Assembly: GCA_022711395.1 (NCBI GenBank)
Contig: JAKLFA010000002.1
Coordinates: forward strand, 323,864 to 387,863
Length of the DNA: 64,000 nucleotides
Direction: 5' to 3'
From: Candidatus Omnitrophota bacterium
GTDB taxonomy: Bacteria; Omnitrophota; Gorgyraeia; Zapsychrales; JANLHA01
The translations under genes were made by a program, and so were the position numbers. Positions 18,826-36,284 of this stretch are shown one piece after another. The notes beneath the pieces are model-generated. The model had not been told where the DNA came from. It did not search any database and saw only the letters and a program-made list of their open reading frames with translations. Each line of letters begins with the position of its first letter. Positions within the stretch are counted from its first letter, which is position 1.

Positions 18826-19200
18826 TCAGATGTTTTGGTCGATCGCTTGAATAAGCTCTTCGACCGTGCAGGGCTTGGCAAGGAAAGGATAACCTGAAAT
18901 GAACCCGTCTTCCTGATTGACTTCGGATTTCCGCACCGTCGCGGTCAAAAAAATGATCGGGATCTGAGCTGTTTGTTCGTTTTCCCGAAGCTGACAAAGC
19001 ACGTCCGGACCTTCCATCTCCGGCATGATAATATCCAACAGGATCAGTTCCGGCCGGTATCCCAAAGCCGTCTCAAACGCCCGGGTCGAATCATTTTCGA
19101 TCCGCACAAGAAAACGGCCGGTATCCTCAAGGTTCAGCTTCACCATTTCGGTGAAACCAACCTCATCATCCACGATCAATATGCGTTTTGGTTCTGTCAT
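18826..19200 (-). CDS. Single-domain response regulator (CheY-like receiver)
   Basis: …ILIVDDE…LILLDIIMPEMEG…FLAKP… is the canonical D-D-T/K receiver pattern. It overlaps the upstream kinase gene by 4 nt (ATGA). Confidence 0.85.
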   Translation of the reverse strand: MTEPKRILIVDDEVGFTEMVKLNLEDTGRFLVRIENDSTRAFETALGYRPELILLDIIMPEMEGPDVLCQLRENEQTAQIPIIFLTATVRKSEVNQEDGFISGYPFLAKPCTVEELIQAIDQNI

Positions 19201-20393
19201 TTCCCGTTGACCTTAAAGACCAGCCTGGCGCGAGCGCCCTGCTTGTCTTCCTTATTGGCCAGATCGATCATCCCGCCATGCGAATCCATGATCGTCCGGG
19301 CGATCGACAATCCCAGCCCGACGCCTCCCGCGGCCCGGTGTGTGGTAAAGAAGGGATCGAATATTTTTTCAAGATATTCATCCGGGATGCCTTTTCCTGT
19401 GTCCTCAAAATCCACGATCAGGACATCTTCCCCGACCGCGATCGAATCCGTCAGATTGGATGCCACCGAAATGTCGGACCGGTCAAAGATCTTGCGCGTG
19501 GTGCGGATCGTGAGCGTGCCTCCGTTTTTCATCACCGCGATCGCGTTGAGGATCAGATCAACGACAACTTGCTCGATACGGTTCTTGTCGATCAAGACAT
19601 TCGGAAGGTTGGTGGCAAAATGTTTGACGATCTTGATCTGGAATTTTTCGCACTGATGATGCGTGAGGACCAGCCCCTGCTCGATCGTTCGCTCGATCGG
19701 GCAGAGGTCTCTCTTGATATCTGAAAGGCTGGCAAAATCCAAAAGGTCTTTGATAATGCTGTTGGCCTTATACGCCGCGTCCTTGATGGAACGCAGGGTC
19801 AGCTCGATCTTGTCATCCCCGTCTTTAAGGACCGTGTTGAGATATTCCACCCCGTAAAGGATCGTTGCCAGGGGATTTTTGACCTCATGAGCGATCCCGC
19901 TCGCGACGCCACCGACCACGTTCATTTTTTCCGCGCGGATCAGCTGGGCCTGCATTTCTTTCAGCTCATCCATGGCCTTGTGCAGTTCAGTCTCCGCCTT
20001 CTTTCGTTCGATCGCGTAATAAAGCGCCTTGACCAGCCCATAGGACTTATACATCCCCTTGATCAAATAATCCTGGGCGCCCATCGTCACCGCCCTCAGG
20101 CCAAGATCGTCCTGGTACTCACCCGTATTGACGACAACCGCCAGTTGCGGATAGCGGCCATGAAGGCGCTTTAACGTATCAATCCCGTTACTGTCCTTGA
20201 TATTCAGGTCAAGAAGAACAACATCCACCAGGCTTTGCTTTAGAAGTTCGAATGTTTCCTGCAGGGAATCCGTGGCGCTGATCTGAAACGAACCATATGG
20301 AGCTTTGGAGAGCATGTTGATAAGGACCGCCCGATCGACATCATTGTTCTCGACGATCAAGACTTGAAGGGTCCGCTTCAGCTCAGTATCCAT
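19197..20393 (-). CDS. Hybrid sensor histidine kinase with an N-terminal receiver domain followed by HisKA and HATPase_c domains
   Basis: Receiver (…VLIVENNDVDR…VVLLDLNIKDSNG…); H-box …GIAHEVKNPL…; N/G boxes (…DTGKGIPDEYLEKIFDPFFTT…GGVGLGLSIAR…). Confidence 0.85.
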   Translation of the reverse strand: MDTELKRTLQVLIVENNDVDRAVLINMLSKAPYGSFQISATDSLQETFELLKQSLVDVVLLDLNIKDSNGIDTLKRLHGRYPQLAVVVNTGEYQDDLGLRAVTMGAQDYLIKGMYKSYGLVKALYYAIERKKAETELHKAMDELKEMQAQLIRAEKMNVVGGVASGIAHEVKNPLATILYGVEYLNTVLKDGDDKIELTLRSIKDAAYKANSIIKDLLDFASLSDIKRDLCPIERTIEQGLVLTHHQCEKFQIKIVKHFATNLPNVLIDKNRIEQVVVDLILNAIAVMKNGGTLTIRTTRKIFDRSDISVASNLTDSIAVGEDVLIVDFEDTGKGIPDEYLEKIFDPFFTTHRAAGGVGLGLSIARTIMDSHGGMIDLANKEDKQGARARLVFKVNGK

Positions 20394-20457
20394 ACACTCT
20401 CCTCTTTTGCTTGATTATATCAATTGCGGATGGGAAATCAAAAGCAAAAACATTTTT

Positions 20458-20862
20458 TTAGAAATTCTCCCCTTCCCCGATGAAAAACAATTCTTGAAAG
20501 AACGCGTAATTTTCATGGACAGCCCTGATGCTGGGGCCCAGACGCAGCGCTTTCAGGGCCAGCGGATAAGCATTATTTTTAAGAAATTCAATGTCATATC
20601 TCTGCGCCCCCACATACGCGTCATGGCGGTAGCAATAGCTCATGCCCAGGTATCCCAGGGGCGAATAAGGAAATTTCTTGATCAAGGAAAGAAAGACCTC
20701 CTGAGTTGCCGTGCTGGCCCTGACATTGCGCGCTGTTGAGTTGAGCTGTTCGATCCCCCTCTCATAGAGTTCGATCGGATGCGGAGACATCAGGCAGGAT
20801 CCTGAAGGGATCAAAATGAGAGAAAATACGCAAAATAATATGAAAGAAAGAGTGTATTTGTT
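20458..20862 (-). CDS. Small secreted protein, unknown function
   Basis: Signal peptide MNKYTLSFILFCVFSLILIPSGSC. Confidence 0.4.
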   Translation of the reverse strand, partial: NKYTLSFILFCVFSLILIPSGSCLMSPHPIELYERGIEQLNSTARNVRASTATQEVFLSLIKKFPYSPLGYLGMSYCYRHDAYVGAQRYDIEFLKNNAYPLALKALRLGPSIRAVHENYAFFQELFFIGEGENF

Positions 20863-20929
20863 CATTTTTCGCACTATTCCTACGAAAAAGTATATCACAT
20901 GATAAGAGAAATTAACCACTTACGGAAGG

Positions 20930-21415
20930 TTATACTTTCGAACTGCTCACAAGGCGGAAATAGTCTTTGATGCGCTGGTCTCTTAAATACCGCACGGATG
21001 GGACCGTTAAGGTCAAATAGAGAAGGATCATTCTTAGAAATGGGCCCGGATGGAACAGCATGATCTCAATGGCAGGGCTTTGATACATAAAATACCGCGC
21101 TCGAACGACCTTGTAGACCGTGTTCAAGATCAAAAAAAACGCGGTAGGAAAGATCAGATAAACCGTTGCCAATCGCGCCCACTCTCTGGAAAGGTATAAG
21201 GACACCCCCGCGAAATACAGCAAGACCGGAATAAAACCATACAGAAAAAATCCGATGAACCCCCGCCAGGAATTGATCGAAAGAAGCCCCAGCCCACCGA
21301 CATTAATGGCATCCAGGACCTCGAACAGGATCAAAAGTGAACCAAAACCGCCCAAGCAGATCATTAAGGACGAGATGATGGTAACCCCCAGGGGCCGCTG
21401 CAGTTTAATCACCAT
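20930..21415 (-). CDS. Integral membrane protein (4-5 TM helices), unknown function
   Basis: Hydrophobic helices throughout. Confidence 0.45.
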   Translation of the reverse strand: MVIKLQRPLGVTIISSLMICLGGFGSLLILFEVLDAINVGGLGLLSINSWRGFIGFFLYGFIPVLLYFAGVSLYLSREWARLATVYLIFPTAFFLILNTVYKVVRARYFMYQSPAIEIMLFHPGPFLRMILLYLTLTVPSVRYLRDQRIKDYFRLVSSSKV

Positions 21416-21420
21416 AGTCG

Positions 21421-21969
21421 TTACTTTGCGAGGGTCGCTTTCCCTTTTTCATCGATCAGGATCTCCGTGATGATACGGCCTTCACGATCGAACTTCCGTT
21501 TGCGCCTTAAAAGGCCGTCTTTATACTCCAGTTGATAAAGCAGATGTCCATCGTCGTCAAACTGATCATAAACACCCTCCATCTCCGTAAAACGCACCGC
21601 CCGTTTGGAAGAACCTTCCGTGATGGTCTCTCCCTGCCCGTCCTGGCCCGTAAACGCTTTCTGATCATATTCTTTTTGCGCGATATCAAGTTCCCGCTGC
21701 CGAAAGATCATCTGTCGGGCCTGGAACAAGATCAATAAACCTGCCAGGCATCCGCCGCAAATGATCAGCGAGAAGCGCAGCGCGCGGCTGGCCCGCTGTT
21801 CCCTCGCCTTCAAGGCGTCATAGATGTGGATGACCAGGGCCTCTTCACTGATCCTTCCCGCGGAATAGATCTTGTCCAGGCGCATCCCAAGCGAGCTTGC
21901 CAGAAGTTCCAATTCCCGCAACCGGACCTTTTTATCAGGAAGATTCAGGATAAGGTCTAATTTTCTCAC
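21421..21969 (-). CDS. Membrane-anchored protein, unknown function
   Basis: Single central TM helix (…FSLIICGGCLAGLLILF…). Overlaps the start of the next gene. Confidence 0.4.
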   Translation of the reverse strand: MRKLDLILNLPDKKVRLRELELLASSLGMRLDKIYSAGRISEEALVIHIYDALKAREQRASRALRFSLIICGGCLAGLLILFQARQMIFRQRELDIAQKEYDQKAFTGQDGQGETITEGSSKRAVRFTEMEGVYDQFDDDGHLLYQLEYKDGLLRRKRKFDREGRIITEILIDEKGKATLAK

Positions 21970-22784
21970 ACGCGCTCCTGGGCCTTAAAATGATTTTTGC
22001 ACAGATCGATAAAGGCCTGGTCGACCCAGCGGCCCATGTAGGATGTTCCGCCCGCCTTTAAAAAGGCCGCCGCGTCCTCCTCGATCTTCAGGACCTGCCT
22101 GCGGCTCAGCGGATCATCCAACTGCCCGGTCTGATAATAGGAAAAACCGATCACCGGCTTCGACGAGAACCCATGGACATGCCGGAGGACCTCCATGAAC
22201 TCGGAAACCGGTTTGTCCAGCTGCACATCCGTGAACACAATATCAGGCGCTTCTTCGATGACCGAGGCCACGGCCTGAGAAACAGAGGTGGACAGGCGCG
22301 TCTTAAAGCCCTGCTCCTGCGCCAGAGCCGCCATCTGATGGAGCTGGACATGATAATCGGACCGTCCGACCAGAAGGACCTTGGAAACAGAACGGACAAA
22401 AACGGGCCGGTCAACCGTTTTGGCGCCGGCGAGAGCGCCTTCAATAGCGTCTAAAAGTTCTTGGGGAGTGAACGGTTTTGTGATAAATCGATCGACCCCG
22501 ACCGCGCCGAACGAATCTTTCATCTGGCCGCGCCCGGAGATGACGATCACCGGGATCGGACTGGTCTCATAGGCGCGCCTGATCTCCTTAAAGAGGGAAA
22601 ACCCGTCCATCTGCGGCATCAGCACATCGGTCAGGATAAGGTCTGGCGAATGTTCAGAAAGGATGTCCAGCGCGGCTTTTCCGTTCTCCGCGCAGGAAAC
22701 GCGGTATCCCCGCTTCTCCAGGATCGAACGGGTCGAACTCAGGATATCCGGATCATCGTCAACGATCAAAATATGTTTGCTCAT
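21966..22784 (-). CDS. Response regulator with an N-terminal receiver plus a second, receiver-like (likely degenerate) domain and no DNA-binding domain
   Basis: …ILIVDDDPDIL…PDLILTDVLMPQMDGF…IPVIVIS…FITKPF… is a receiver. It is a paralogue of the 24683-25486 gene. Confidence 0.75.
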   Translation of the reverse strand: MSKHILIVDDDPDILSSTRSILEKRGYRVSCAENGKAALDILSEHSPDLILTDVLMPQMDGFSLFKEIRRAYETSPIPVIVISGRGQMKDSFGAVGVDRFITKPFTPQELLDAIEGALAGAKTVDRPVFVRSVSKVLLVGRSDYHVQLHQMAALAQEQGFKTRLSTSVSQAVASVIEEAPDIVFTDVQLDKPVSEFMEVLRHVHGFSSKPVIGFSYYQTGQLDDPLSRRQVLKIEEDAAAFLKAGGTSYMGRWVDQAFIDLCKNHFKAQERV

Positions 22785-22797
22785 GACAGAGTCTCAC

Positions 22798-24552
22798 CTA
22801 TGAGGCGTTCACGTCACGAAAAACAGCCCCGGTATCAGCGCTGGTCACCAGGGAAGCATAACGGGCAAGCCAGCCGCCTTTGACCTTGATCTTAAACGGC
22901 TCTAATTTTTTAAGGCGCTTGGCGATCTCTTTATCCGCCAGTTCCACATCCATCGTGCGCTTCTTGACATCGATGGCGATCATATCGCCGTTCTGAATGA
23001 TGGCCATCTCGCCGCCAGCCGCGGCTTCCGGAGCCACATGGCCGATGCACAGCCCCCTCGTCCCGCCGGAAAACCGCCCGTCCGTAATAAGGGCGGCCTT
23101 GATCCCGGCGCCCTTGAGCGCGGATGTGGGAGAAAGCATCTCCTGCATGCCGGGACCTCCTTTGGGACCTTCATAACGGATCACGACCACATCGCCATCC
23201 TTGACTTTTTTGTTCAGGATCGCGGCGAGGGCCTCTTCCTGCGATTCATAAACTTTGGCCGGCCCGCGGAACTTGAGCATGTCCTCATCCACACCGCTGG
23301 TCTTAAGGACCGCGCCGTTCCTGGCAAAATTACCGGTCAGGATCGTCAATCCACCTTCCTGAGAGAACGCCTTCTCCACGGTCCGGATCACGTCCCCGTC
23401 CGGGCCCGGGGACCTGTTGACATAATCCCCCAGCGTTCCGTAAACGGTCGGAGCATCCAGCTTCAAATACTTGTGCCCGTGGTCGGCGATCGGCTTCAAG
23501 ATCGCCCCCATTCCTCCCAACCGATGGACATCTTCGATGTGCACATCCGGGCGCGACGGCGCGATCTTGACGACGTTTGCCGTGGCGCGCGAGATCTTAT
23601 CGATACGGTTGATGTCATACTTCAGGCCCGCTTCACTGGCGAGCGCCAAAACGTGCAGGACGGTATTCGATGAGCCGCCCATGGCCATATCCAGCGTAAA
23701 AGCATTGTCGACCGCGTCCCGCGTGATGATATCCAAGGGCCGGACCTTCTCATTCATGAGCCTGATCAAAGTTCTCGCCGAATTGCGGACCAGCTCGATC
23801 CTGTCGGGATTCAGCGTATGCTGACGCTTCGCCCCTTCCACGCGGACCGTGGCCGGGGTTGAACCGTTGCCGGGAAGCGCCACTCCTAAAATTTCTGAAA
23901 GACAGTTCATGGAATTGGCCGTGAACATTCCCGAACAGCTGCCATACCCGGGACAGGCGACTTCCGTCAACTTCCTTAAATCTTCTTCGGACATTTTACC
24001 GACGGATTCTTTGCCTACGCCCTCAAAAACCGTGATCAGGTCCGTATTGTTCAACCCCGAAAGCATGGGTCCGCCGCTCACATAGATCGCCGGAATGTTG
24101 ATGCGGACCATGGCATTGAGCATCGCCGGCACGATCTTATCGCAGTTGCCGATGCCGATCCATGCGTCACAGGGATGCGCGCCGATGATCGTTTCGATCT
24201 GGTCCGCGATCAGCTCGCGCGACGCCAGCGAATATTTCATCCCGAAATGCCCCATCGCGATCCCGTCGCAGACAGCCCCGCCGATATTGGCATACCAGAC
24301 ATTGACGCCCAGCTTTTCGAGCTCCGCCTTGGCGATCGCCCCCAGCTGGTCCAGATGGGCGTGGCCGGGGATCTGGTTCGTGTAAGAATTGATGATCGTC
24401 ACGAACGGACGCTTTAAGTCGACCGCGTCCTTCAAAACGCCCTCCGCCATCATGAGCGAAACACATGGCAGCATATGGTTGCCGGAGCGGAACACCCCGC
24501 TTCCGTTTTTACGGACACTTTCGATCCCCTGATTAATAACTCGTTTTGACAT
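22798..24552 (-). CDS. ilvD: Dihydroxy-acid dehydratase
   Basis: MSKRVINQG… N-terminus, the …CDGIAMGH… cluster ligand region and the …[17 protein letters not shown]… C-terminal motif. ATG at 24552. Confidence 0.9.
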
Positions 24553-24682
24553 TTGATTCCTCTCTTCTCGTTTACAAATCTCAATACACAAATCACACCA
24601 ATAAACCTTGCCTTATCTTACACGAACCAAAAGAATCGTCAAAGTCCTAGTTGAAATTTCTGACGTCCTATGAAGGGTATTG

Positions 24683-25486
24683 CTAAAGATATTTGGAGAT
24701 CTGTTCCAAAAAGGATTGTTCATTGAACCGGTCAACATATTCGGTCGCGCCGGCCATCATCGCCTCCTGTGCGCAGCGCTCGATCACGGCCGCCCGTTTG
24801 CGGAATTCCGCAGACGCCAGATCGCTGACGCGGTAATAACTGTAGATCAGGATCGGTGTTTCTTCATGATGCGGGAACAGCCGGATCGCCTTGACCACGT
24901 CCTGCACTGAACGGCCATCCTCCAGCTGCGCTTCCAAAATGATCACATCGGGCTGAAAATTGACCACATGGACCAGGATATCCGCCGCGGTCTTGGCGTT
25001 CTGAACGTGGTATCCTTGCGAATTGAGCCCCTTGATGATGCTTTCACAGACCTCAGGATACGTCCCGAAAACCAGGAATTTCTGGGCCGCCTTCTTGAAA
25101 TGCCCGTGGCTGCCGTAATGGGCGAGCGTTTTATCGATCGTCGACAGCAGAACGTTCGGGGCGCTGGGCTTTTCTAAGAATCCGGCGACCCCTAAAGCGG
25201 CGAAAGCGTCCTCCATTTTTCCTCTGGCGGTCAGAACGATCACAGGGATCTCTTTTGTTTGAGGGTGCTCCCGAAGGGCCTTACAAAAGACGAATCCGTC
25301 CATTTCAGGCATGAGGACATCGGTCAAAATCAGATCAGGGTGGGCTTTTTTCAATAGATCAAGGGCTTCGGTCCCGTTGCCGGCCTGTAACACGATGTGC
25401 CCGGCGGTCTCAAGGTTCAAGGCAAGCATCTGCCGTTCGGCAGCTTCATCTTCAACAACCAGGATAATGGCCATTGTTCCCTCCAT
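24683..25486 (-). CDS. Response regulator with a receiver plus a second receiver-like domain (paralogue of the 21966-22784 gene)
   Basis: …ILVVEDEAAER…PDLILTDVLMPEMDGF…IPVIVLT…FLEKP…. Shares PDLILTDVLMPxMDGF and IPVIV segments with its paralogue. Confidence 0.75.
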   Translation of the reverse strand: MEGTMAIILVVEDEAAERQMLALNLETAGHIVLQAGNGTEALDLLKKAHPDLILTDVLMPEMDGFVFCKALREHPQTKEIPVIVLTARGKMEDAFAALGVAGFLEKPSAPNVLLSTIDKTLAHYGSHGHFKKAAQKFLVFGTYPEVCESIIKGLNSQGYHVQNAKTAADILVHVVNFQPDVIILEAQLEDGRSVQDVVKAIRLFPHHEETPILIYSYYRVSDLASAEFRKRAAVIERCAQEAMMAGATEYVDRFNEQSFLEQISKYL

Positions 25487-26895: not shown

Positions 26896-27609
26896 TCACG
26901 CGATCTTGATAGCTCGAACACAGCAGACGCAGTCTGTCCCCCGCGGGGTCTTGACCTTCTGCGCGTCATCTAAGGCTGTTTCCTGCCAGCAATTGTTCTC
27001 CTGCCCGGAAGGCAGAACATTTTTGAAAAAGCGCATGTCCTCGACCTTGAATTTCCGAAGGAGCCTGTCCAGCCTGGGCTTGTCATAGGTCCTTTGCTGA
27101 TCGTTGACATACGGCTGCCCGAACGGAACGGTGAGGACAAAGCGCCCCTTCGGTTTGAGGATCCGGTGGATCTCCAGCACTCCCTTTTCATCCGCTTCCA
27201 TCTCGCTTTGCGGGTCATGATAAAATCCCAGCCCCACATGTTCGATCATGGAGACGCACAATGCCGCGTCAAAAGAATGGTCGGAGAACGGAAGTTTCAA
27301 AATATCACCTTGTTGAAATTTGAAATTCGGAACGCGGTAGGGATATTCCCTGAAATCCAGCCCCGTGACCTGAAAGCCCAAACTCGCCATGAACAACGAC
27401 AGCATGCTTTCCATGCAGCCCAGATCAAGGATCGTCGAACCCTTCGCAAGATCACTGACCGCCTGGATCGCGTATGGGATCTCGATGATCCGCTCATTGA
27501 TCATGACCTTCTTCAATCTTGAGACTTTCCGGAAGCGCCTCCAGTCAAAGACCCGTTTATATTTTAAAAAAACAGGATTGTTCAAAAAATATGTTTCCGG
27601 CAGGTCCAT
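26896..27609 (-). CDS. Class I SAM-dependent methyltransferase (type 11-like)
   Basis: …ILDLGCMESMLSLFMASLGFQVTGLDF… (motif I) and …DAALCVSMIEHV… (motif II/post I). Start at MDLPETYF… avoids overlap with the upstream GT2 gene. Confidence 0.75.
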   Translation of the reverse strand: MDLPETYFLNNPVFLKYKRVFDWRRFRKVSRLKKVMINERIIEIPYAIQAVSDLAKGSTILDLGCMESMLSLFMASLGFQVTGLDFREYPYRVPNFKFQQGDILKLPFSDHSFDAALCVSMIEHVGLGFYHDPQSEMEADEKGVLEIHRILKPKGRFVLTVPFGQPYVNDQQRTYDKPRLDRLLRKFKVEDMRFFKNVLPSGQENNCWQETALDDAQKVKTPRGTDCVCCVRAIKIA

Positions 27610-27623
27610 TGAAATCCCTTTCT

Positions 27624-28448
27624 TTATCTTTTCCGGCATTCCCACGGGTCCGGCAATTTGTCCGCCGGGAGAATGTCCGGATTTTTCACGATATAACGTT
27701 CCGCGTATTTGCAAATGCGGATCACATCAAAGGCCCAGATCATCGCGGCATAGATCAGGCCGTGGATCCCGTCCTTATACCCCTGCTTTTTGATATACGA
27801 CTTCCAGAAATTCTTGAACGGTTTGGTGAACAAAAGCCAACGCAGTTTTTTTTCTGAAAGTTCACCATACTGATCAAAATAATCCTTTTGGTCAAACTCA
27901 CTGATAAAATTAAATTTTTGAGTGATCCAGTGGATGTTGGGATTGGGATAATGGAGCACTTCGCCTTTTAACTGGCCGATCTTGCCGTCAATGATCGGTC
28001 TTTCATGATAGGAGTCGCCTTCGAAGCGGACCTTGTCCCGACGGAACATTTTGAGCCCGTTCCCGCTCCATCCTCCGTGGCGAAGCGGTTTGTTCATAAA
28101 AAAATTTACCCGGGGAAGCTCAAAGGCGACGTATTCACTGCCATGTTCTAAAATGCTTAGAATTTCTTTCTTTAGCTCCGCAGAAATAAACTCATCAGGG
28201 TCAATGAAAAGCACCCAGTCGGCGATTGTCTGTTGAATAGCCCAGGCAGATCGTTTATTGTGGTTAGCTTCAAGCGGTTTGTGCAACAAAGTCCGCTTGT
28301 ATTTCCTCGTGACTTCCGCAGAATTATCCGTGCTCCCGGAATCCAGCATAATAATATCATCAGCCCAGGCATGGGCCTCCAAAAAAGCAGGCAGAGCCGC
28401 CTCTTCATTCAAAACGCTTCCGATCAACGCAAATATTTTTCTACTCAT
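27624..28448 (-). CDS. Family 2 glycosyltransferase
   Basis: …IFALIGSVLNEEAALPAFLEA…IIMLDSGSTDNS… and …FIDPDE… (DxD) are GT2 motifs. Confidence 0.75.
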   Translation of the reverse strand: MSRKIFALIGSVLNEEAALPAFLEAHAWADDIIMLDSGSTDNSAEVTRKYKRTLLHKPLEANHNKRSAWAIQQTIADWVLFIDPDEFISAELKKEILSILEHGSEYVAFELPRVNFFMNKPLRHGGWSGNGLKMFRRDKVRFEGDSYHERPIIDGKIGQLKGEVLHYPNPNIHWITQKFNFISEFDQKDYFDQYGELSEKKLRWLLFTKPFKNFWKSYIKKQGYKDGIHGLIYAAMIWAFDVIRICKYAERYIVKNPDILPADKLPDPWECRKR

Positions 28449-29466
28449 GCATCCTCGCATATTTTGCCCCTTCAATCATCTTACGAATGGCATCTTCTAA
28501 ACCGATGCCAACCTTCAAGTTCAGCTCTTTTTTTGCGCGTTCAATACAAGGCACATACTGTGCCACGCCCTGTTCTTTATATTCATTCGTGATCCTCACC
28601 GGCACATTAGATCCAGACAAACTTACCATAAGTTTTGCCAAATCAGCGATCTCTATCCGTTGGTCAGACCCGACATTATACGGCCTTAGAGAAATGCCGC
28701 TCTGCAAGATCTTAAAAAGCCATATGACCAGATCAGACATGTACAAATAGGACCGCGTCGTACGCCCATTCCCCTTAATGAGCACTTCCTTGCCGTCAAG
28801 AATATTCTGCAGAAAGTTTCCAGCCGCGTAATAACGTCCCAACGGCAAAAAAGGCCCGATAAACGCAAAACATCGTGCAATAGCAATCTCGAAACCGTGA
28901 GCCGACGCATATTCGCAACATAACCGCTCAGCGGACAGCTTCGCCCTTCCATACTCTGTATCCGGCTTCCCGTGATAACTCTCATCCACATGAAGAATAT
29001 TCTGCGGCTGTGTTCCATAAACAGCACCGGAACTTAAAAAAAGAACACGGGAAGGTTTTTTCGCGGCCGCGAATTTCAAAACACGCTCTGTTCCCTTTTC
29101 GATCACATCAGCCACTTCATGAACCTGCTCCGGGGTCCTCCCAGCGCCTGCATCCGCAGCGCCATGAATCATATAATCACAATGTTCTTCTGGCCATTCA
29201 AAGGACCGGATGTCACCCTTCAAAAACGACAACCATGATTCCCGGGCGAATGAAGGATTTGTCTTTAAAAAACGCTCTGGATCTCGCGATAAAACAATAA
29301 CCGATATTTTTACCCCTTCCTGGTTAATGATCCATCGAAAGGATTCCAGCATCCATTTCCCAAAGAATCCCGTACCTCCGGTCACAAAAATACGTTTCTT
29401 ATGAAAAAATGTACAGTCAACAGACTTTTGAATGTACTCAAGATCCTGCTGAATCAAATCAGGCAT
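28441..29466 (-). CDS. NAD-dependent sugar epimerase/dehydratase (extended SDR)
   Basis: …IFVTGGTGFFGKWM… Rossmann motif and the YxxxK catalytic dyad (…YGRAK…). Confidence 0.8.
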   Translation of the reverse strand: MPDLIQQDLEYIQKSVDCTFFHKKRIFVTGGTGFFGKWMLESFRWIINQEGVKISVIVLSRDPERFLKTNPSFARESWLSFLKGDIRSFEWPEEHCDYMIHGAADAGAGRTPEQVHEVADVIEKGTERVLKFAAAKKPSRVLFLSSGAVYGTQPQNILHVDESYHGKPDTEYGRAKLSAERLCCEYASAHGFEIAIARCFAFIGPFLPLGRYYAAGNFLQNILDGKEVLIKGNGRTTRSYLYMSDLVIWLFKILQSGISLRPYNVGSDQRIEIADLAKLMVSLSGSNVPVRITNEYKEQGVAQYVPCIERAKKELNLKVGIGLEDAIRKMIEGAKYARMHE

Positions 29467-31279
29467 CCTTACCTTCTTTTAAGGGCTCGACGATCATATT
29501 TTTAAAAAACTCTTCTCTTGATAAAAAAGGATACATGTCCTCAAGCGGTTTGGAAACCAAGGTTCCGTCATTCCTGCGGAATGATGCGACCGTAGGGATG
29601 ATCTCTTGATCTTCCAAACACATGAGCTCACAAATGACAGGACACTTTTCACTCAAGACCTGCAGCATGACAGATTCCAAATTCTTTGGGCTTTTCGCAG
29701 AATAATATTTTATGCCGTACGCCCTTGCGATCTTCTTAAGATCAGGAAATGAAATACCAGAGCTCTTATCGGTTCCCAACAATCGCCCATTGAAAAACTT
29801 CTTTTGAGTTGACCGGATCGAAAGATATCCGTTATTATTAAAAACAAATAATTTGATCGGAAGATCATACTGCACGATCGTCTGGAGCTCCTGCAAGTTC
29901 ATCTGAAAAGATCCATCGCCAGTAATACCGATGGTTTCTTTATTCTTATTCGCAAAACACACACCAATCGTCCCGGGAAGTGTATAGCCCATCTCACCCT
30001 GTGCCCCGGGCGCAATAAATCTTTGCCCTGACCTAAGCTTCAGGCCTTGGGCCGCAACATACGCCGCAGATCCTGCATCAGTCACGACCGTGGCGTTCCG
30101 CTTTAATTTCTTAGAAAGCAAATCAATAAAATAATACAGATTAATTCCCCCACTGGTTTTTGAATACTCCGGAAGGCACACCGGCCATTTAGACGCCCAT
30201 TCACGGCATTGTTGAATCCATGTCCCTGCATTTGGCCTTTGAATCTTTTGCTTGAGCATCTCAGCTAGAAAATTTAAAAGATGAGCATAAATAAAACGGT
30301 CTATCTTGACAGTCTTCTTTTTATGCTCTTCTCTGTCAATATCGACCACATAAACCTTGGCGCCACGAGCAAAATTCTGATATTCATGCCCCGTTGAACT
30401 GACGCTCAAACGACTGCCAAGCACAAGGACAAGATCAGCGTTCTGAAGAGCAAAATTTCCTGCCCGATCTCCTTTATTGCCGATACGTCCGATAAACAGA
30501 GGATGCCGGGCAGGAAGAAGATCGATCCCCAAATGTGTTACAACCACCGGCAATTGATTCAAATCGATAAATTGCCCAAATTCTCTGAGCGATCCGGAAA
30601 GACGAACGCCCTGGCCCGCGACTACGATTGGTCGAACGGAACGAGCCAAATCTTTGCAAAGACCACTGATATCATTTGGATCAACAACCGGATTTTCACA
30701 CAACTCCATCCGTTCCTCCTTACTAAAATGTCGTAAGGAATTTTCGGACAAATTGGCGCCTTGAACATCCAAAGGAATATCCAGCCAGACAGGACCTGGA
30801 CGTCCGGTCTTTGCGAGAAAAACAGCCTTTTCTAAATGATAGGCGATATCAGACGTATCATTAACCATGACCGCATATTTTGTAATTGGTGCTACCAACG
30901 ATAGAATATCAACCTCCTGAACACCGAATTGCCGAAGTTTCAACTCGGAATTGCGGATTGTCTCTTTTCGTTTAACCTGTCCGGAAATAAAAATACATGG
31001 CGTATTGTCCTGCCAGGCATCTAAAAGTCCAGTAATTGCGTTTGTGCCCCCGCATCCTGTGGTAACAATGACCGCCCCGAGGTTATTGGTATATTTGGCA
31101 TACGAAACAGCGGCCATCGCGCACGCTTGTTCATGATGATTGAAAACGGCCCTTAACTTTCGATGACAAGCCACCCCATCAGCCAAGAACATCATGCCTC
31201 CACCGGTCACCATAAACACATCACTTATCCCCTGGCGGTAAATAAAATCCGCAACATAATCAGCAACCCGTAACTTCAT
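29459..31279 (-). CDS. Thiamine-diphosphate-dependent enzyme of the acetolactate-synthase/YerE-like family (candidate two-carbon branch-forming enzyme acting on a sugar)
   Basis: N-terminal PYR domain (…VFMVTGGGMMFLADG…), central domain, and a C-terminal PP domain with the GDGSFQMN TPP-binding motif. Confidence 0.75.
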   Translation of the reverse strand: MKLRVADYVADFIYRQGISDVFMVTGGGMMFLADGVACHRKLRAVFNHHEQACAMAAVSYAKYTNNLGAVIVTTGCGGTNAITGLLDAWQDNTPCIFISGQVKRKETIRNSELKLRQFGVQEVDILSLVAPITKYAVMVNDTSDIAYHLEKAVFLAKTGRPGPVWLDIPLDVQGANLSENSLRHFSKEERMELCENPVVDPNDISGLCKDLARSVRPIVVAGQGVRLSGSLREFGQFIDLNQLPVVVTHLGIDLLPARHPLFIGRIGNKGDRAGNFALQNADLVLVLGSRLSVSSTGHEYQNFARGAKVYVVDIDREEHKKKTVKIDRFIYAHLLNFLAEMLKQKIQRPNAGTWIQQCREWASKWPVCLPEYSKTSGGINLYYFIDLLSKKLKRNATVVTDAGSAAYVAAQGLKLRSGQRFIAPGAQGEMGYTLPGTIGVCFANKNKETIGITGDGSFQMNLQELQTIVQYDLPIKLFVFNNNGYLSIRSTQKKFFNGRLLGTDKSSGISFPDLKKIARAYGIKYYSAKSPKNLESVMLQVLSEKCPVICELMCLEDQEIIPTVASFRRNDGTLVSKPLEDMYPFLSREEFFKNMIVEPLKEGKDA

Positions 31280-31294
31280 TTTTAAAATCCTTTA

Positions 31295-33025
31295 CTAGAC
31301 CAAAATGCTGTTATTGAAATATTTTTTATGCGAGGTCGGAGTAATGATCGAGAACGGAATCCCGAGGTCATTCAAAAAATCTGACACCCTCTTAAGCTCA
31401 ATATCCATATTCTCATAACGCAGAGAGGCAGCCGCTTTATCGTCCGGCACGTCTTTTTCATTATAAAAGTAAACTACCTTTCCCTGTTCCTCGCTTTCAT
31501 ACCCATCCATACCGACGGCCATAATCTCCTGCGCCCCCATCTGTAGAGCGGTCAGGATCGCGTTCACCCCGACATTCAAATATTTCACTTGCTGACGGAT
31601 GCCATCGATTGGAGAAGAATTCAGATCATCAATAGAATCGATCTGAACATACTCAACAGGCCCGCTATAGTTTTCCTGGACCAGACGTTTTCCAAAAAAG
31701 CTTGGAACAAGAAGAATGCTTTTTTTAGATACAGTCGCGGCATATTTTAAAAATCGTTTTTTGCTGACAAAAATATGGTAATCCGGCGCATAAACAGAAT
31801 TTAAAAAGTTACATCCAATCGTCACAAGCCCCAACCTCTTGATAAGCCCCTTAATTTTATCTTCATGTTTAACAATGGAAGGCCCATTGCCAATGATCAA
31901 AAATTTTTTTCCCTTGTGCCTGTCTTTCATTCCGAGCGAATCCAAGGAAAATGCATCTTTCGACGGAATAGCTTTCAATTCCTTTTCAATCGAGCGGATC
32001 GCTTCTTTGGCTTGAGAAGTGGTCGGGACATAGAACCTCTCTTCCAAAGCATTTTTAAGTTTCTCTCCGGAAAAGGAAATCGGACATTTTTCCTTCACGG
32101 TTTCAGCGATATTGCAAATCTCTTCAATTGTGTAATTATGGGAATTAAAAAGTTCATCAATGTAATAGGGATGAATATTACGGATCCCCCCCAAAAGCGA
32201 TCGTAGCGAGTAACCCCAAGGATCCTTTTCAAACAAGGGGAGAAAAAACCGCTCAATGACATCAAGATATGGAACGACGTTGTACTCTTTATCTCCGATT
32301 TTGCTTAAATAGCTTAGAAGTATCTCAATCGGAAGATTTCCAGCCCCCCGGCCCATGCCGTAAATTGACGCATCAACATAACTGGCCCCTTCAGTGATCG
32401 CGTGCAGAGTATTTGCGAATGCCATCTGAAGATTGTTGTGTGCATGAAATCCGATACGCTCGAAACCCAGCGCTTTTAACTGGCCAATCAATTCTGAAAT
32501 TTCAGCTGGAGCATAAGCGCCAAAACTGTCCGCAAAATAGACCGCCTTGAGTGCATTCTTTTGCTTCCAATTCTTTAATACCGCAAATTCCTGTTGCGAC
32601 CATTCCGAACTTGCCATAAGGTTCATAAACACTTCATAACCCGCTTCATGGAACTGCTCAGCCAGATCAACGGCGATCTTCACCTCAAATGGATACGCAG
32701 CCACTCGTACACCGGTAAATGGTGTCGGCTCTTTTGTTCGATCAGGAATCTTATAGCCGGAATATTTTCCTGCATCCAGCATAAAAAGCAATTTGCAATC
32801 GCTTGAAGACTTAAAAAGTCCATTAATATATTTCTCATCACAATATCCGAAAGGACCAAGCCCCTTTTTGCCTGGATCATTCTTGTAACCAATCTCGAAA
32901 TAATCAACCTGCCCTTTTTGAGCGGCAAAGTAGGAAGCCTTCACAAGATTATCCTCAAACTGCCACTTGTTCAGATGGCCACCGTCACGAATGGTACAAT
33001 CAATAATCTGTATTTTTGTCGTCAT
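31295..33025 (-). CDS. Fusion protein: N-terminal HMGL-like/DRE-TIM metallolyase (pyruvate-carboxyltransferase-type aldolase) domain plus a C-terminal Maf/DUF115 (MptE-like, motility-accessory-factor glycosyltransferase family) domain
   Basis: …IIDCTIRDGGH… and …GFHAHNNLQMAFANTL… (DRE-TIM). The C-terminal …KKFLIIGNGPSI…LVTIGCNF… resembles the DUF115/Maf Rossmann-like core. Confidence 0.55.
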   Translation of the reverse strand: MTTKIQIIDCTIRDGGHLNKWQFEDNLVKASYFAAQKGQVDYFEIGYKNDPGKKGLGPFGYCDEKYINGLFKSSSDCKLLFMLDAGKYSGYKIPDRTKEPTPFTGVRVAAYPFEVKIAVDLAEQFHEAGYEVFMNLMASSEWSQQEFAVLKNWKQKNALKAVYFADSFGAYAPAEISELIGQLKALGFERIGFHAHNNLQMAFANTLHAITEGASYVDASIYGMGRGAGNLPIEILLSYLSKIGDKEYNVVPYLDVIERFFLPLFEKDPWGYSLRSLLGGIRNIHPYYIDELFNSHNYTIEEICNIAETVKEKCPISFSGEKLKNALEERFYVPTTSQAKEAIRSIEKELKAIPSKDAFSLDSLGMKDRHKGKKFLIIGNGPSIVKHEDKIKGLIKRLGLVTIGCNFLNSVYAPDYHIFVSKKRFLKYAATVSKKSILLVPSFFGKRLVQENYSGPVEYVQIDSIDDLNSSPIDGIRQQVKYLNVGVNAILTALQMGAQEIMAVGMDGYESEEQGKVVYFYNEKDVPDDKAAASLRYENMDIELKRVSDFLNDLGIPFSIITPTSHKKYFNNSILV

Positions 33026-33027
33026 AT

Positions 33028-33783
33028 CTAAAGGATCCGTAATTCATGATAGCCATGAACTGTGTGTGGCGTTTCAGATTGCAAACTCTCAAAAGGAACC
33101 TGCCCCAACGCCACCGCGACACCAGCCTTAAGCTGAGCATTTTCCGCCATCTGGATATCCATGGAGGTATCACCAATCACAATGGTGGAACTTCTTTCAG
33201 CTTTCATCTGCTCCAAAGCAACAAGTGCAGGCTCTCCGCTTTCCTTAGGCAACGCTGTCGCCTCTTTTCCAAGAAGAAGATCAAAATATTTTGCAATCCC
33301 TAAAAAACTCATAATCTCTTCAGTATTTTTTATGCTGTCAGACGTAATAACCGCCATTTTGACACCCTTGCCACGGAGTTCTTTGAGAAACGCCTCAACA
33401 CCCGGAAGAATCGCGGTGTATTCATAGATCTCTCTGAGAAAGCCCGAGTGGACATCAACAAAAAGCTTCTCAATCTGTCCCTGTGAAACGGAAAAACCAT
33501 GCTCTGACAAAAAATCAATCAGAATCCCGATCACTTTTTCACGGCTGACTAAAGCGATGGGACCTTCCGGCAAAAGCCGTTTCGTCTCTAACGAGAACCC
33601 CATCACCCGGCAAAGTTTTTCATGGAAATCATGCTTCAGGTTGAACATGGAGATCAGCGCGTGGCTTCGCATTTCAATGATCCGGCCCCAATACAAATGG
33701 CTATCGATCAGCGTCCCGTCTTTATCAAAAAATACGGTCTCGATACCATCAATATCCCAATCAGAAGATGAAAGAGTGATCAT
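33028..33783 (-). CDS. HAD-superfamily phosphatase (subfamily IA)
   Basis: …VFFDKDGTLIDS… motif I, …ITSDS… and …VIGDTSMD… motifs. Confidence 0.75.
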   Translation of the reverse strand: MITLSSSDWDIDGIETVFFDKDGTLIDSHLYWGRIIEMRSHALISMFNLKHDFHEKLCRVMGFSLETKRLLPEGPIALVSREKVIGILIDFLSEHGFSVSQGQIEKLFVDVHSGFLREIYEYTAILPGVEAFLKELRGKGVKMAVITSDSIKNTEEIMSFLGIAKYFDLLLGKEATALPKESGEPALVALEQMKAERSSTIVIGDTSMDIQMAENAQLKAGVAVALGQVPFESLQSETPHTVHGYHELRIL

Positions 33784-34760
33784 AAATATTTTAGCGTTTT
33801 ATCGACCAATTGTTTAGCAATCCGAAGGGCGCCGTTAAAGGCCCTGTCGTTTTTTAAAAAATCATCCCGGCCAATATATGTTTTAATGATTTTCCGGGCA
33901 AACGATCCGATCGCAACCCCATGCGCCGTGATCTCAAACATTTTCGCCATTCGAGCCGTTTTGCTGTTGGTCCCTCCGGATGTCAGGACCCAAACAGGAA
34001 GCCTCGCTTTTTGCACAATATCTGCGGTTGCCAAAGCCTGTAATGTCGTATTGTAGCGGTCATCTCCACCGCTCATCGGAGCGCCATCGGCCTGAATAAT
34101 TGTTGAAAATTCCGGCCGGTCTGCAATAAAACGCTTGATGCGTGCAATGAGCTGTTTGTCCCCTAAATGTGACCGGTCAAGACAAAGGCTTAGGACGCCA
34201 TCAAAAACATCATTCATGATATTCCACTGGGCATAAGCGCCCTCTTCATCATCAGTGACAGCATGCAATTCAAGGGAACTTAATCCAAACTTGATCAATG
34301 GCGGAAGCAAAACCTTCAAGTCAACATTTTCTGTGACAAAAGTAACTGCTTTGGCTGCAGTACAAATTTTTTCACATGCCCCGCAACCAATACAGCGTTT
34401 CTTTACTACAACGTATTCGCCCGTCGTTTGGGCTATGGCCGTCTGCAAACACGCCTTGGCGCACAATCCGCATGCTTTACATTTTTCAGTAATGATCAAC
34501 GCTTTACGAACATGCGGATCGCCGGAAATCCCGACGCTCACATTCAAAAAATAATTCTTTCGCTTGTTCTTTGGAATGACCCTATCCAGACCCCGTTGAG
34601 CGGCCAATACCACATCCTCACGCGCTGAAAGATCAAAATAATTTGCCCCTGCCTTGGCATAAACGGCAACCAATTTTTCGACTTCCTGCGCGTCCTCATT
34701 ACCCGCGCCGCAAACCAGCTTAAAACACTGTTTCTTTTTTAGAATATCCGAAAGGCCCAT
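33780..34760 (-). CDS. Protein with an embedded 2x[4Fe-4S] ferredoxin-type motif inside a TIM-barrel-like scaffold; unknown function
   Basis: CKACGLCAKAC and CIGCGACEKIC (two CxxCxxCxxxC motifs). Flanking …LVCGAGNEDA… and …PVWVLTSGGT… segments. Confidence 0.45.
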   Translation of the reverse strand: MGLSDILKKKQCFKLVCGAGNEDAQEVEKLVAVYAKAGANYFDLSAREDVVLAAQRGLDRVIPKNKRKNYFLNVSVGISGDPHVRKALIITEKCKACGLCAKACLQTAIAQTTGEYVVVKKRCIGCGACEKICTAAKAVTFVTENVDLKVLLPPLIKFGLSSLELHAVTDDEEGAYAQWNIMNDVFDGVLSLCLDRSHLGDKQLIARIKRFIADRPEFSTIIQADGAPMSGGDDRYNTTLQALATADIVQKARLPVWVLTSGGTNSKTARMAKMFEITAHGVAIGSFARKIIKTYIGRDDFLKNDRAFNGALRIAKQLVDKTLKYL

Positions 34761-35852: not shown

Positions 35853-36284
35853 TTAAAATTGTTTAGTGTAATGCTGCGGATCGAACGCGCGTTTTTCCCG
35901 TTCGATCCAATACGTCGCAGCGCCGGGATCGATCTTTTGCGAAAGCAGGTCTTTCCCAAACAGCCGCATGATAAGCCCGATCGGCGCAAAGACCAGATAA
36001 AAACACAAGGCCAGCGTCAAGGTTGTCACGACCCACATCAGGGCCTTGAACGCCGTCTCCATCACCCAGCGCAGCGGGTAGACCCAGCGCGGTCGGATCA
36101 GGGCCATCACAAGGGCGTAGCATCCCGCCGGAGCAAAAAAATACACATGCCCCCAATGGCCGCGTGTGGCCTGCCAGATCGAGATCGCGATCGCCAGCGG
36201 CCCGAAGATCAGGCCGAATTTCTTAAGTTCAGTGTCAGTGACAGTGTTAGTGATAGTGTGAGTGTCAGTCTTAGAAAAAAACAT
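35853..36284 (-). CDS. SxtJ-like small membrane protein (carbamoyltransferase-associated). Its N-terminus is encoded by a hexamer repeat array.
   Basis: …KKFGLIFGPLAIAISIW… plus two further TM helices and conserved synteny with the carbamoyltransferase. The N-terminus MFFSKTDTHTITNTVTDTE derives from the (AGTGNN)n array. Confidence 0.5.
   Translation of the reverse strand: MFFSKTDTHTITNTVTDTELKKFGLIFGPLAIAISIWQATRGHWGHVYFFAPAGCYALVMALIRPRWVYPLRWVMETAFKALMWVVTTLTLALCFYLVFAPIGLIMRLFGKDLLSQKIDPGAATYWIEREKRAFDPQHYTKQF
36231..36269. repeat. Hexanucleotide tandem array (AGTGNN)x6.5; inverted partner of the 36678-36717 array
   Basis: agtgtc agtgac agtgtt agtgat agtgtg agtgtc agtc. Confidence 0.7.

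Follow-up and report, generated by a model that had tools for sequence, protein, structure and literature searches.

The 64,000-nt stretch of Candidatus Omnitrophota bacterium contig JAKLFA010000002.1 analysed here (the window) encodes a 576-aa protein in which an HMGL-like aldolase is fused to a C-terminal MptE-like domain (the C-domain). The most likely role of the fusion is to supply a keto acid as a precursor of an unusual branched sugar of the cell surface, not to glycosylate proteins in the manner of Maf. A pathway to acyl-branched sugars is the best-supported role of the locus and is considered likely, because of the aldolase half of the fusion, a YerE-like thiamine diphosphate (ThDP)-dependent enzyme encoded next to it and a conserved operon. 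The best explanation of the protein as a whole is an enzyme with two functions in a sugar pathway for surface glycans, its C-domain acting at the keto-acid stage, to which we give roughly an even chance.

The fusion gene

The gene and its parts are as follows:
31295..33025, minus strand: whole fusion gene, 576 aa and stop codon, encoding an HMGL-like aldolase, a helical linker and an MptE-like domain
32081..33025, minus strand: aldolase domain, aa 1-315, a DRE-TIM barrel with a helical subdomain
31931..32080, minus strand: helical linker, aa 316-365, without Pfam match and with low conservation and low model confidence (predicted local distance difference test, pLDDT)
31298..31930, minus strand: MptE-like domain related to glycosyltransferase family 42 (GT42), aa 366-576, predicted to bind a nucleotide monophosphate (PF01973, Foldseek and profile matches)

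The gene is one uninterrupted, ATG-initiated open reading frame (ORF) in the ORF list of the window, and an NCBI entry from a Candidatus Omnitrophota metagenome-assembled genome is identical to its product. Among the 120 best homologs (49-100% identical), 117 are 560-596 aa long and cover 98-100% of the query, which excludes an assembly artefact. The fusion is genuine, and the covalent joining of two halves proposed in the initial annotation stands, as they are not separate genes. More than 100 full-length relatives are spread over many phyla, and both Pfam domains are precomputed in most full-length homologs. In the homolog alignment, 49 near-invariant positions fall within aa 1-270 and 23 within aa 366-576, and both halves are under selection. 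The linker is the least conserved segment (mean 0.53 over aa 321-365) and has the lowest pLDDT (58-78 over aa 330-360) in the full-length AlphaFold model, which reaches a pLDDT of 87.8 and a predicted template modelling score (pTM) of 0.66.

Proteins of this kind are named "aldolase catalytic domain-containing protein" or "MptE-like protein" by NCBI and 4-hydroxy-2-oxovalerate aldolase by JGI. The architecture had initially been regarded as not described, and literature searches found no paper discussing the fusion, its function, its C-domain or its HAD and LdpA partners. It is, however, already abundant in public databases and even partly crystallised, since PDB entry 3dxi shows the N-terminal domain from a related protein; the kind of pathway has been known since 2022. 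Fusion-marked clusters span Omnitrophota, candidate-phyla-radiation bacteria, Geobacter, Elusimicrobia, Planctomycetes, Clostridia, Bacteroidales and DPANN archaea.

N-terminal aldolase domain

The N-terminal half matches PF00682 (HMGL-like) with 77.1 bits (E 1.9e-21), above the gathering score of 29, and carries the motifs CTIRDGG at aa 10-16 and HAHNN at aa 194-198, which agrees with its earlier assignment to the DRE-TIM metallolyases. Against PDB sequences its closest solved relative is 3dxi (E 9e-49), and the DmpG-type 4-hydroxy-2-oxovalerate aldolases match at E 1e-22 and weaker (DmpG 1nvm, E 1e-22). The TIM-barrel fold is supported by pLDDT values mostly above 90 over aa 1-270 and by Foldseek matches to 3dxi (TMt 0.83) and DmpG (TMt 0.75). 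Residues R13, D14, H17, H194 and H196 align on R17, D18, H21, H200 and H202 of DmpG, an Arg/Asp/His/His/His set. In DmpG/BphI enzymes the Arg of this set binds pyruvate, one His is catalytic and three residues ligate the metal. Across 56 homologs, R13, D14, H194 and H196 either do not vary or are conserved to at least 90%. By sequence and fold this half is a DRE-TIM class II pyruvate aldolase with intact DmpG catalytic residues. It should yield a 4-hydroxy-2-oxo (keto-deoxy) acid, in line with the keto-acid product suggested before.

NCBIfam returned aldolase and synthase models alone for the fusion, every one below its cutoff. The best of these are 4-hydroxy-2-oxovalerate aldolase families, and with the JGI name they would suit a catabolic 4-hydroxy-2-oxovalerate aldolase of the usual kind whose extra domain is of no consequence. 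The scores of 108-122 bits lie far under the cutoffs of 229-286 (TIGR03217, 108.3 against 286; NF006049, 122.5 against 229). The DmpG communication domain (DmpG_comm) is absent, with no PF07836 match and an alignment to DmpG that stops near aa 264, and the fusion lacks a DmpF-type partner. No acetaldehyde dehydrogenase or meta-cleavage genes lie nearby, and an AcetDehyd gene was not found in the examined loci that encode fusions of the window's type (window-type). The gene context is consistently glycan biosynthesis. A catabolic role is hardly credible: the missed family cutoffs and the neighbouring genes as good as rule it out. The N-terminal half is instead predicted to be a competent class II pyruvate aldolase that lies outside the catabolic DmpG/BphI family and in a biosynthetic glycan context.

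The operon and its ThDP-dependent carboligase

The fusion gene is followed by the gene of the ThDP enzyme in a gene set with the order LdpA-like protein, HAD phosphatase, fusion, ThDP enzyme, short-chain dehydrogenase/reductase (SDR), glycosyltransferase of family 2 (GT2) and methyltransferase. The partners of the fusion are:
33780..34760, minus strand: LdpA-like protein, 326 aa (PF12617, Fer4, DUF561), with a TIM-barrel-like LdpA_C/DUF561 region and two 4Fe-4S motifs
33028..33783, minus strand: HAD-family phosphatase, 251 aa (PF00702, PF13419), 2 nt upstream of the fusion gene
29459..31279, minus strand: YerE/JanthE-like ThDP-dependent carboligase, 606 aa, with three thiamine pyrophosphate (TPP) domains
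28441..29466, minus strand: extended SDR of reductase/epimerase type, 341 aa (PF01370)
27624..28475, minus strand: GT2 glycosyltransferase, 283 aa (PF00535), with a 35-nt overlap with the SDR gene
26896..27714, minus strand: S-adenosylmethionine-dependent methyltransferase, 272 aa (PF08241), the last gene of the operon, overlapping the GT2 gene

The spacing between these genes ranges from -91 to +15 nt and they are therefore taken to form one operon. The stretch around the fusion has a GC content of 44-45%, against 51-57% in the flanks.

The ThDP enzyme aligns end to end with its best PDB match, JanthE (8rph, E 2.5e-126). The next match is 5ahk (E 1e-82), the YerE homolog of P. protegens; true acetolactate synthases rank lower, at E 1e-66. 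Every acetolactate synthase cutoff of NCBIfam was missed, and the enzyme is YerE-like, closest to JanthE and 5ahk and not to acetolactate synthases. JanthE is a YerE-like carboligase that accepts ketones; 4-hydroxy-2-oxovalerate can serve it as a donor, and its physiological substrates are stated as unknown (PMC12188165). The longer acyl-branched sugars erwiniose, caryophyllose and gastriose are built in three steps (Steitz et al. 2022, PMC9306805): a pyruvate aldolase makes a gamma-hydroxy-alpha-keto acid, a YerE-like ThDP enzyme couples this acid decarboxylatively to cytidine diphosphate (CDP)-4-keto-3,6-dideoxyglucose, and an SDR reduces the side chain. The keto acid of the window pathway is most likely consumed by the ThDP enzyme, because the operon has this published acyl-branched sugar signature. 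The initial annotation had envisaged a Maf-type transfer of a keto-acid sugar to a protein or glycan acceptor; the operon instead encodes a YerE/JanthE-like carboligase and an SDR, which speaks against it. A ThDP carboligase beside a pyruvate aldolase and an SDR is found in the window and is conserved in all 10 assessable window-type loci. This count and the neighbourhood counts below come from a local hidden Markov model census of all fetched loci, which covered 10 assessable window-type loci and 11 divergent ones.

For the substrates and the order of the steps we infer the following scheme. The metal-dependent aldolase domain would condense pyruvate with an aldehyde to a 4-hydroxy-2-oxo acid, a keto acid of the 3-deoxy-2-ulosonic type. 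The adjacent ThDP enzyme would decarboxylate this acid and attach the chain to a nucleotide-activated keto-sugar, and the SDR would reduce the product. The methyltransferase and the GT2 enzyme would then modify and install an acyl-branched sugar of the erwiniose/caryophyllose class.

The SDR has GxxGxxG and YxxxK motifs and most closely resembles the JanthE cluster's second SDR and the SDR of a Bacteroidota-like contig (L005). It was considered as a 4,6-dehydratase supplying the keto-sugar and ruled out in that role, as the TDE motif is absent. The best NCBIfam models for the HAD protein are PpaX pyrophosphatase and phosphoglycolate phosphatase, both under cutoff.

The locus of JanthE (L086, Janthinobacterium sp. 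HH01, AMWD01000002.1:4131597-4153429) encodes, in order, an NTP-transferase (257 aa), a 4,6-dehydratase, a DegT-family protein, JanthE, an SDR, an acetaldehyde dehydrogenase, a DmpG-type HMGL aldolase, a second SDR and a GT2 enzyme. JanthE, an enzyme of biocatalysis, sits in a complete erwiniose-type cluster. Unlike the window-type loci, this cluster has both the DmpG communication domain and the acylating acetaldehyde dehydrogenase. The presence of the acetaldehyde dehydrogenase and the DmpG-type aldolase in that cluster points to 4-hydroxy-2-oxovalerate and a CDP-keto-sugar as the natural substrates of JanthE. The fusion itself does not occur next to the characterised JanthE, where the aldolase and dehydrogenase are found instead; the window cassette has the same skeleton, with the LdpA-like protein, the HAD phosphatase and the fusion in place of the dehydrogenase-aldolase pair.

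The window shares with the erwiniose/caryophyllose clusters (ErwI/ErwJ-ErwE-ErwF; MMAR_2331-2332; the JanthE cluster) the grouping of a pyruvate aldolase, a YerE-like ThDP carboligase, an SDR and a glycosyltransferase. It differs from them in three respects. Its aldolase is of neither the DmpG/BphI nor the HpcH type but belongs to a 3dxi-like HMGL branch fused to an MptE-like domain, an HAD phosphatase and an LdpA-like Fe-S protein replace the acetaldehyde dehydrogenase partner, and the window does not contain the genes for CDP-4-keto-3,6-dideoxyglucose (cytidylyltransferase, 4,6-dehydratase and E1).

C-terminal MptE-like domain

PF01973 (MptE-like) matches the C-domain over aa 368-507 with 26.4-28.6 bits (E 6.8e-6 to 1.4e-6; profile positions 20-165 of 171). 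A set of 60 domain relatives, made up of the window C-domain and 59 stand-alone proteins, was used to build a broader profile, and 49 of the 60 match PF01973 at E <= 0.01. The AlphaFold model of aa 320-576 (pLDDT 86.9, pTM 0.84) has M. jannaschii MptE/HPPK as its top Foldseek match in the PDB (8sd5, E 4e-6, probability 1.0, template modelling (TM) scores 0.46/0.53), with further matches to SteA (E 2e-5) and the GT42 sialyltransferase Cst-I (E 0.018). The broader profile matches Cst-I/II in the PDB (2p2v, 1ro8, 1ro7) at E 1.3e-4 to 2.6e-4 over the core that binds cytidine monophosphate (CMP), TSG...GIDFY, as well as MptE (E 1.2e-3) and SteA (E 0.07). The domain motif aGmDGY aligns with SGIDFY of the GT42 core, and GtGPS aligns weakly with GNGPS. 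PF06002 (the CST-I family) is matched by four of the 60 relatives at E >= 0.0027 and not by the window domain. The full-length profile gave aldolase-type matches alone against PDB sequences and nothing credible for the C-domain.

We assign the C-domain with confidence to the MptE/DUF115-superfamily fold. The superfamily also holds Maf and is related to the GT42 sialyltransferases. The DUF115/MptE fold named in the initial annotation is upheld by the Foldseek match to 8sd5 and by the 49 relatives that match PF01973; its more specific description as Maf-like is not, as the Maf structure 5mu5 was neither in the Foldseek top 50 nor in the profile-versus-PDB matches at E <= 10. In Maf proteins a PF01973 domain lies centrally between N-terminal and C-terminal domains, and the proteins interact directly with flagellin. 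The C-domain of the fusion is a bare module of ~210 aa without these flanking domains.

MptE, the archaeal 6-hydroxymethyl-dihydropterin pyrophosphokinase, is the best structural match, is of the same Pfam family and has a similar single-domain size. It differs from the C-domain in its TM scores of only 0.46/0.53, an identity of ~16%, a profile E of 1e-3, a pterin context that the fusion lacks and the few conserved acidic residues of the C-domain. With Cst-I and Cst-II the C-domain shares the nucleotide-monophosphate-binding core (GNGPS and GxDxY) at a profile E of ~1e-4, and it differs from them and from Maf in having no acceptor-binding domains and no conserved catalytic His, in a locus that has no CMP-sugar supply and no flagellin gene.

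Searched exhaustively with the C-domain alone, a set of 1.84 billion representatives gave 227 at E <= 1e-3. This small family consists of the fusions and many stand-alone proteins of 205-260 aa. Matches of 321-432 aa are truncated fusion fragments on short contigs. G381, G404-x-N406, Y416, R424, G497, G505-x-D507-G508 and T562-P563-T564 are kept in both fused and stand-alone forms. This set looks like an active or ligand-binding site, and the C-domain is conserved and probably catalytic. D507 is invariant, and no alignment to Maf was obtained that would map it onto E324 or D415 of M. magneticum Maf.

Fusion subfamilies and their neighbourhoods

The fusions fall into subfamilies with different partners. 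A ThDP enzyme is encoded in 10/10 of the window-type loci and CTP_transf_3, a CMP-sugar-type cytidylyltransferase, in 0/10. In a divergent group, with 27-35% identity in the C-domain, 9/11 loci encode CTP_transf_3, the remaining two lying on short contigs, and no locus encodes a ThDP enzyme. A Micrarchaeota archaeon and the cultured Aminipila butyrica belong to this group, and one of its loci (L095) also carries a polysialyltransferase-family gene.

Among window-type relatives, the order LdpA, HAD, fusion, TPP enzyme and SDR recurs in a Microgenomates genome and on a Geobacter contig, where the cassettes adjoin genes for a 257-aa NTP-transferase, a 4,6-dehydratase and a DegT-family protein. 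These CDP-hexose-type genes adjoin the cassette in L001, L003, L007 and L096. In L001 and L003 the LdpA-like orthologs are 59-61% identical and HAD orthologs are adjacent, and L001 holds a weakly similar methyltransferase. The Bacteroidota-like contig L005 encodes the fusion, two short-chain dehydrogenases, a TPP enzyme, an SDR, an HAD protein and a GT2 enzyme. HAD and LdpA-like genes are found with both fusion types, and fusion, LdpA, HAD and CTP_transf_3 occur together in L101 and L102. Separate glycosyltransferases are encoded in every fusion cluster. Stand-alone relatives of the C-domain adjoin HpcH/HpaI pyruvate aldolases, CTP_transf_3 and a methyltransferase, and one of them instead adjoins PanB-like and ThDP enzymes. 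Stand-alone aldolases of ~320 aa (in Paenibacillus and others) have none of the partners described here.

A third subfamily contains the parent of 3dxi, a 510-aa Bacteroides/Prevotella protein in a cluster of 247 member sequences; P0396 and about 118 relatives (Bacteroides/Prevotella, 510 aa) belong to it. The unannotated C-terminal ~190 aa of the 3dxi parent are a divergent copy of the same MptE-like domain (hhalign probability 98%, E 8e-14), which Pfam misses. BVU_2661 of Bacteroides vulgatus, whose N-terminal domain is 3dxi, is the closest solved counterpart of the aldolase half and has a C-terminal MptE-like domain as well; its C-domain differs from that of the window in being shorter, more divergent and invisible to Pfam. 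The 510-aa subfamily is common in gut Bacteroidales.

Two further features of these neighbourhoods concern the aldolases. A second, unrelated pyruvate aldolase of the HpcH/HpaI type lies within 7 kb in L006, L007, L010, L097, L098 and L102, which hints at two successive aldol extensions or at alternative donors. In Gastranaerophilales, a short HMGL-like aldolase forms a single protein with an LdpA-like Fe-S/TIM protein (L018:9134-10783, 549 aa) or has one encoded beside it (L013:8509-10804), and an adjacent pair is also present at L009:2473-4433. These three loci contain no MptE-like domain, ThDP enzyme or HAD protein, and the surroundings of L013 and L018 are not sugar-related, with beta-lactamase-family genes in both and a spermidine synthase gene in L013. 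The pairs suggest that LdpA-like proteins are direct redox partners of this aldolase branch. The idea that the LdpA-like protein acts on the product of the C-domain was dropped, since LdpA-aldolase pairs and a fusion occur without the MptE-like domain.

Proposed role of the C-domain

The C-domain accompanies the aldolase whether a ThDP enzyme or CTP_transf_3 follows downstream, and by parsimony it therefore probably acts at the shared step in which the keto acid is made. In the divergent type the keto acid is presumably CMP-activated downstream. The C-domain would be a nucleotide-monophosphate-binding module working at this stage in concert with the HAD phosphatase and the LdpA-like protein, whose genes are co-transcribed with the fusion. 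It would prepare the aldehyde substrate by a reaction with a nucleotide monophosphate as leaving group, either an ATP-dependent (pyro)phosphorylation or the cleavage of a CDP- or nucleotide diphosphate (NDP)-sugar to a sugar phosphate, and in either case the HAD enzyme would remove the phosphate afterwards. Chemistry of this kind is favoured because the relatives MptE and Cst-I/II use a nucleotide monophosphate leaving group; SteA shares the nucleotide pocket alone. The SteA fold shares its phosphonucleotide site with thiamine pyrophosphokinase (AMP) and CstII (CMP) (PMC12977500). We tentatively favour a substrate-preparing C-domain, whether by (pyro)phosphorylation of a hydroxy-aldehyde or sugar or by CDP/NDP-sugar cleavage, at somewhat under an even chance.

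Both options have parallels in the synthesis of ulosonic acids, in which a kinase or NDP-sugar hydrolase, a synthase, an HAD phosphatase and a CMP-synthetase act in turn (sialic, pseudaminic and legionaminic acids). The (pyro)phosphorylation option is analogous to the kinase, synthase and phosphatase order of sialic acid synthesis, and the cleavage option resembles the hydrolase and synthase order of pseudaminic and legionaminic acid synthesis. The divergent fusions with HAD and CTP_transf_3 match the synthase, phosphatase and CMP activation steps. The fusions depart from this logic in two points: condensation would fall to a pyruvate-dependent class II aldolase and not to a phosphoenolpyruvate (PEP)-dependent NeuB/KdsA synthase, and the window subfamily has no CMP-activation step.

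Several observations weigh against this explanation of the fusion. The C-domain does not reach the PF01973 gathering score of 34.6. D507 is its sole universally conserved acidic residue, and more of them would be expected of a Mg-ATP pyrophosphokinase, judging by thiamine pyrophosphokinase. Some stand-alone domains (L091) and a single fusion locus (L093) show no HAD gene in the vicinity, which makes a pairing of kinase and phosphatase less convincing. NTP-transferase, 4,6-dehydratase and E1-like DegT genes were not found within the 64-kb window. The full-length model, with its pTM of 0.66 and weak linker, shows no confident interdomain packing, and the channelling that had been proposed initially is left without structural support.

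One competing view is that the C-domain is a Maf/GT42-type glycosyltransferase that moves a nucleotide-activated keto-acid sugar to a protein or glycan acceptor. The central domain of Maf is a GT42-like PF01973 domain, and Maf has been shown to be a CMP-Neu5Ac/CMP-Kdo flagellin transferase (bioRxiv 10.1101/2020.06.03.131540). The C-domain profile matches Cst-I/II (E ~1e-4) in the CMP-binding GxDxY core and, weakly, in GNGPS, which fits this view, as do the four relatives that match Pfam CST-I and the CTP_transf_3 genes beside divergent fusions and stand-alone relatives, which could supply a CMP-ulosonate donor. It does not fit the window-type loci, where CTP_transf_3 is absent from all 10 and a ThDP enzyme is present in all 10. 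No flagellin, pilin, NeuB-type synthase or cytidylyltransferase/CMP-sugar synthetase genes were found in the 64-kb window, and the absence of a nearby flagellin gene had been noted correctly before. A cytidylyltransferase hidden among the small ORFs of the window cluster was also sought and not found; these ORFs encode SxtJ-like and 23S-rRNA-IVP proteins. Maf 5mu5 was recovered by neither fold nor profile search, the ~210-aa domain lacks the flanking domains of Maf, and every cluster has separate glycosyltransferases, including the polysialyltransferase-family gene of L095. The position aligned with the catalytic His of Cst-II (His188) is not conserved in the C-domain profile. As an account of the C-domain this transferase is unlikely, although it is more plausible for the CTP_transf_3 subfamily. 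For that subfamily the initial idea of a keto-acid sugar that is made, activated and transferred is likewise plausible, and for the window locus it is not.

The C-domain could also be a non-catalytic nucleotide or nucleotide-sugar sensor or docking module that replaces DmpF/ErwJ and gates the aldolase or tethers it to the ThDP enzyme or the CDP-sugar. DmpG-type aldolases depend on a partner that binds nucleotides and on a communication domain (DmpFG/BphIJ), the latter domain is missing from the fusion, and the JanthE cluster has its dehydrogenase/aldolase pair at the equivalent position. The structural relative SteA appears to be a nucleotide-binding regulator and not an enzyme (PMC12977500). 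Against such a module, the polar residues N406, Y416, R424, D507, T562 and T564 are kept in an active-site-like manner even in stand-alone proteins of ~235 aa, and the existence of stand-alone forms disfavours a purely tethering role. We consider a sensor or docking function quite unlikely.

A direct route is conceivable as well, in which the aldolase adds pyruvate onto the keto group of a nucleotide keto-sugar held by the C-domain and the ThDP enzyme decarboxylates the resulting C-branch. Shewanellose bears a pyruvate-derived type of branch, the C-domain resembles cytidine-nucleotide binding sites, and CDP-hexose genes accompany many window-type loci. Ketones can be aldolase acceptors (review PMC12247030). 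The route leaves the CTP_transf_3 subfamily and the stand-alone domain beside HpcH aldolases unexplained, and the closest relatives of the ThDP enzyme take keto-sugars as acceptors and not as keto-acid donors. It is improbable.

Returning to a C-domain that prepares the substrate of the aldolase, a wider reading is possible, if doubtful on balance. The fusion, the HAD phosphatase and the LdpA-like protein may constitute an unrecognised route to 3-deoxy-2-ulosonic-type keto acids that uses pyruvate and a class II aldolase in place of PEP and feeds both the ThDP-mediated C-branching of nucleotide sugars and CMP activation. Its MptE-like domain would have an activity new to the PF01973/GT42 superfamily, for example CDP/NDP-sugar cleavage releasing the aldose substrate or hydroxy-aldehyde (pyro)phosphorylation, and the route would extend to the BVU_2661-type proteins of the gut.

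Rare branched and higher-carbon sugars shape bacterial surfaces and their recognition by phages and the immune system. They are chemically very hard to detect, and gene-cluster signatures are therefore the main route to their prediction. The fusion marks a large set of uncharacterised clusters in which the keto-acid donor would be made differently from the erwiniose/caryophyllose systems. Knowledge of the reaction of the C-domain would give a function to a distinct DUF115/MptE branch and would also explain the structural-genomics entry 3dxi of 2008. The clusters are a possible source of aldolase/ThDP enzyme pairs for the biocatalytic production of chiral tertiary alcohols.

Additional features of the window

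Just upstream of the cassette, the minus strand encodes an SxtJ-like small protein (35853-36284), a NodU/CmcH-type carbamoyltransferase (36726-38561) and a two-domain SGNH/AlgX-like protein (38545-39780). The genes at 35853-39780 resemble an O-carbamoylation/acylation module that may decorate the same glycan as the cassette. A divergent fusion locus (L094) also starts with a carbamoyltransferase gene. A protein of the 23S-rRNA-intervening-sequence family (PF05635) adjoins the cassette both in the window (36285-36716, minus strand) and on a Geobacter contig (L004:15578-15943), and the window copy also has a weak bAvd-like match.

A second HAD phosphatase is encoded at 3276-3971 on the minus strand, 30 kb from the cassette. 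It is the best match in the window to the HAD protein of the L005 cluster (36% identity, E 1e-38), ahead of the HAD protein of the cassette.

The minus strand at 18826-25486 holds a signalling cluster that encodes a hybrid histidine kinase along with three response-regulator proteins. It brackets three small ORFs without Pfam match (20458-21969), in which no pilin domain was recognised, and an IlvD/Edd-family dehydratase (22798-24591). This cluster may be the region that the initial annotation called pilin-like. Further along the minus strand, a single ORF at 45362-47182 encodes chorismate-binding and class IV aminotransferase domains and is apparently a PabB-PabC-type fusion.

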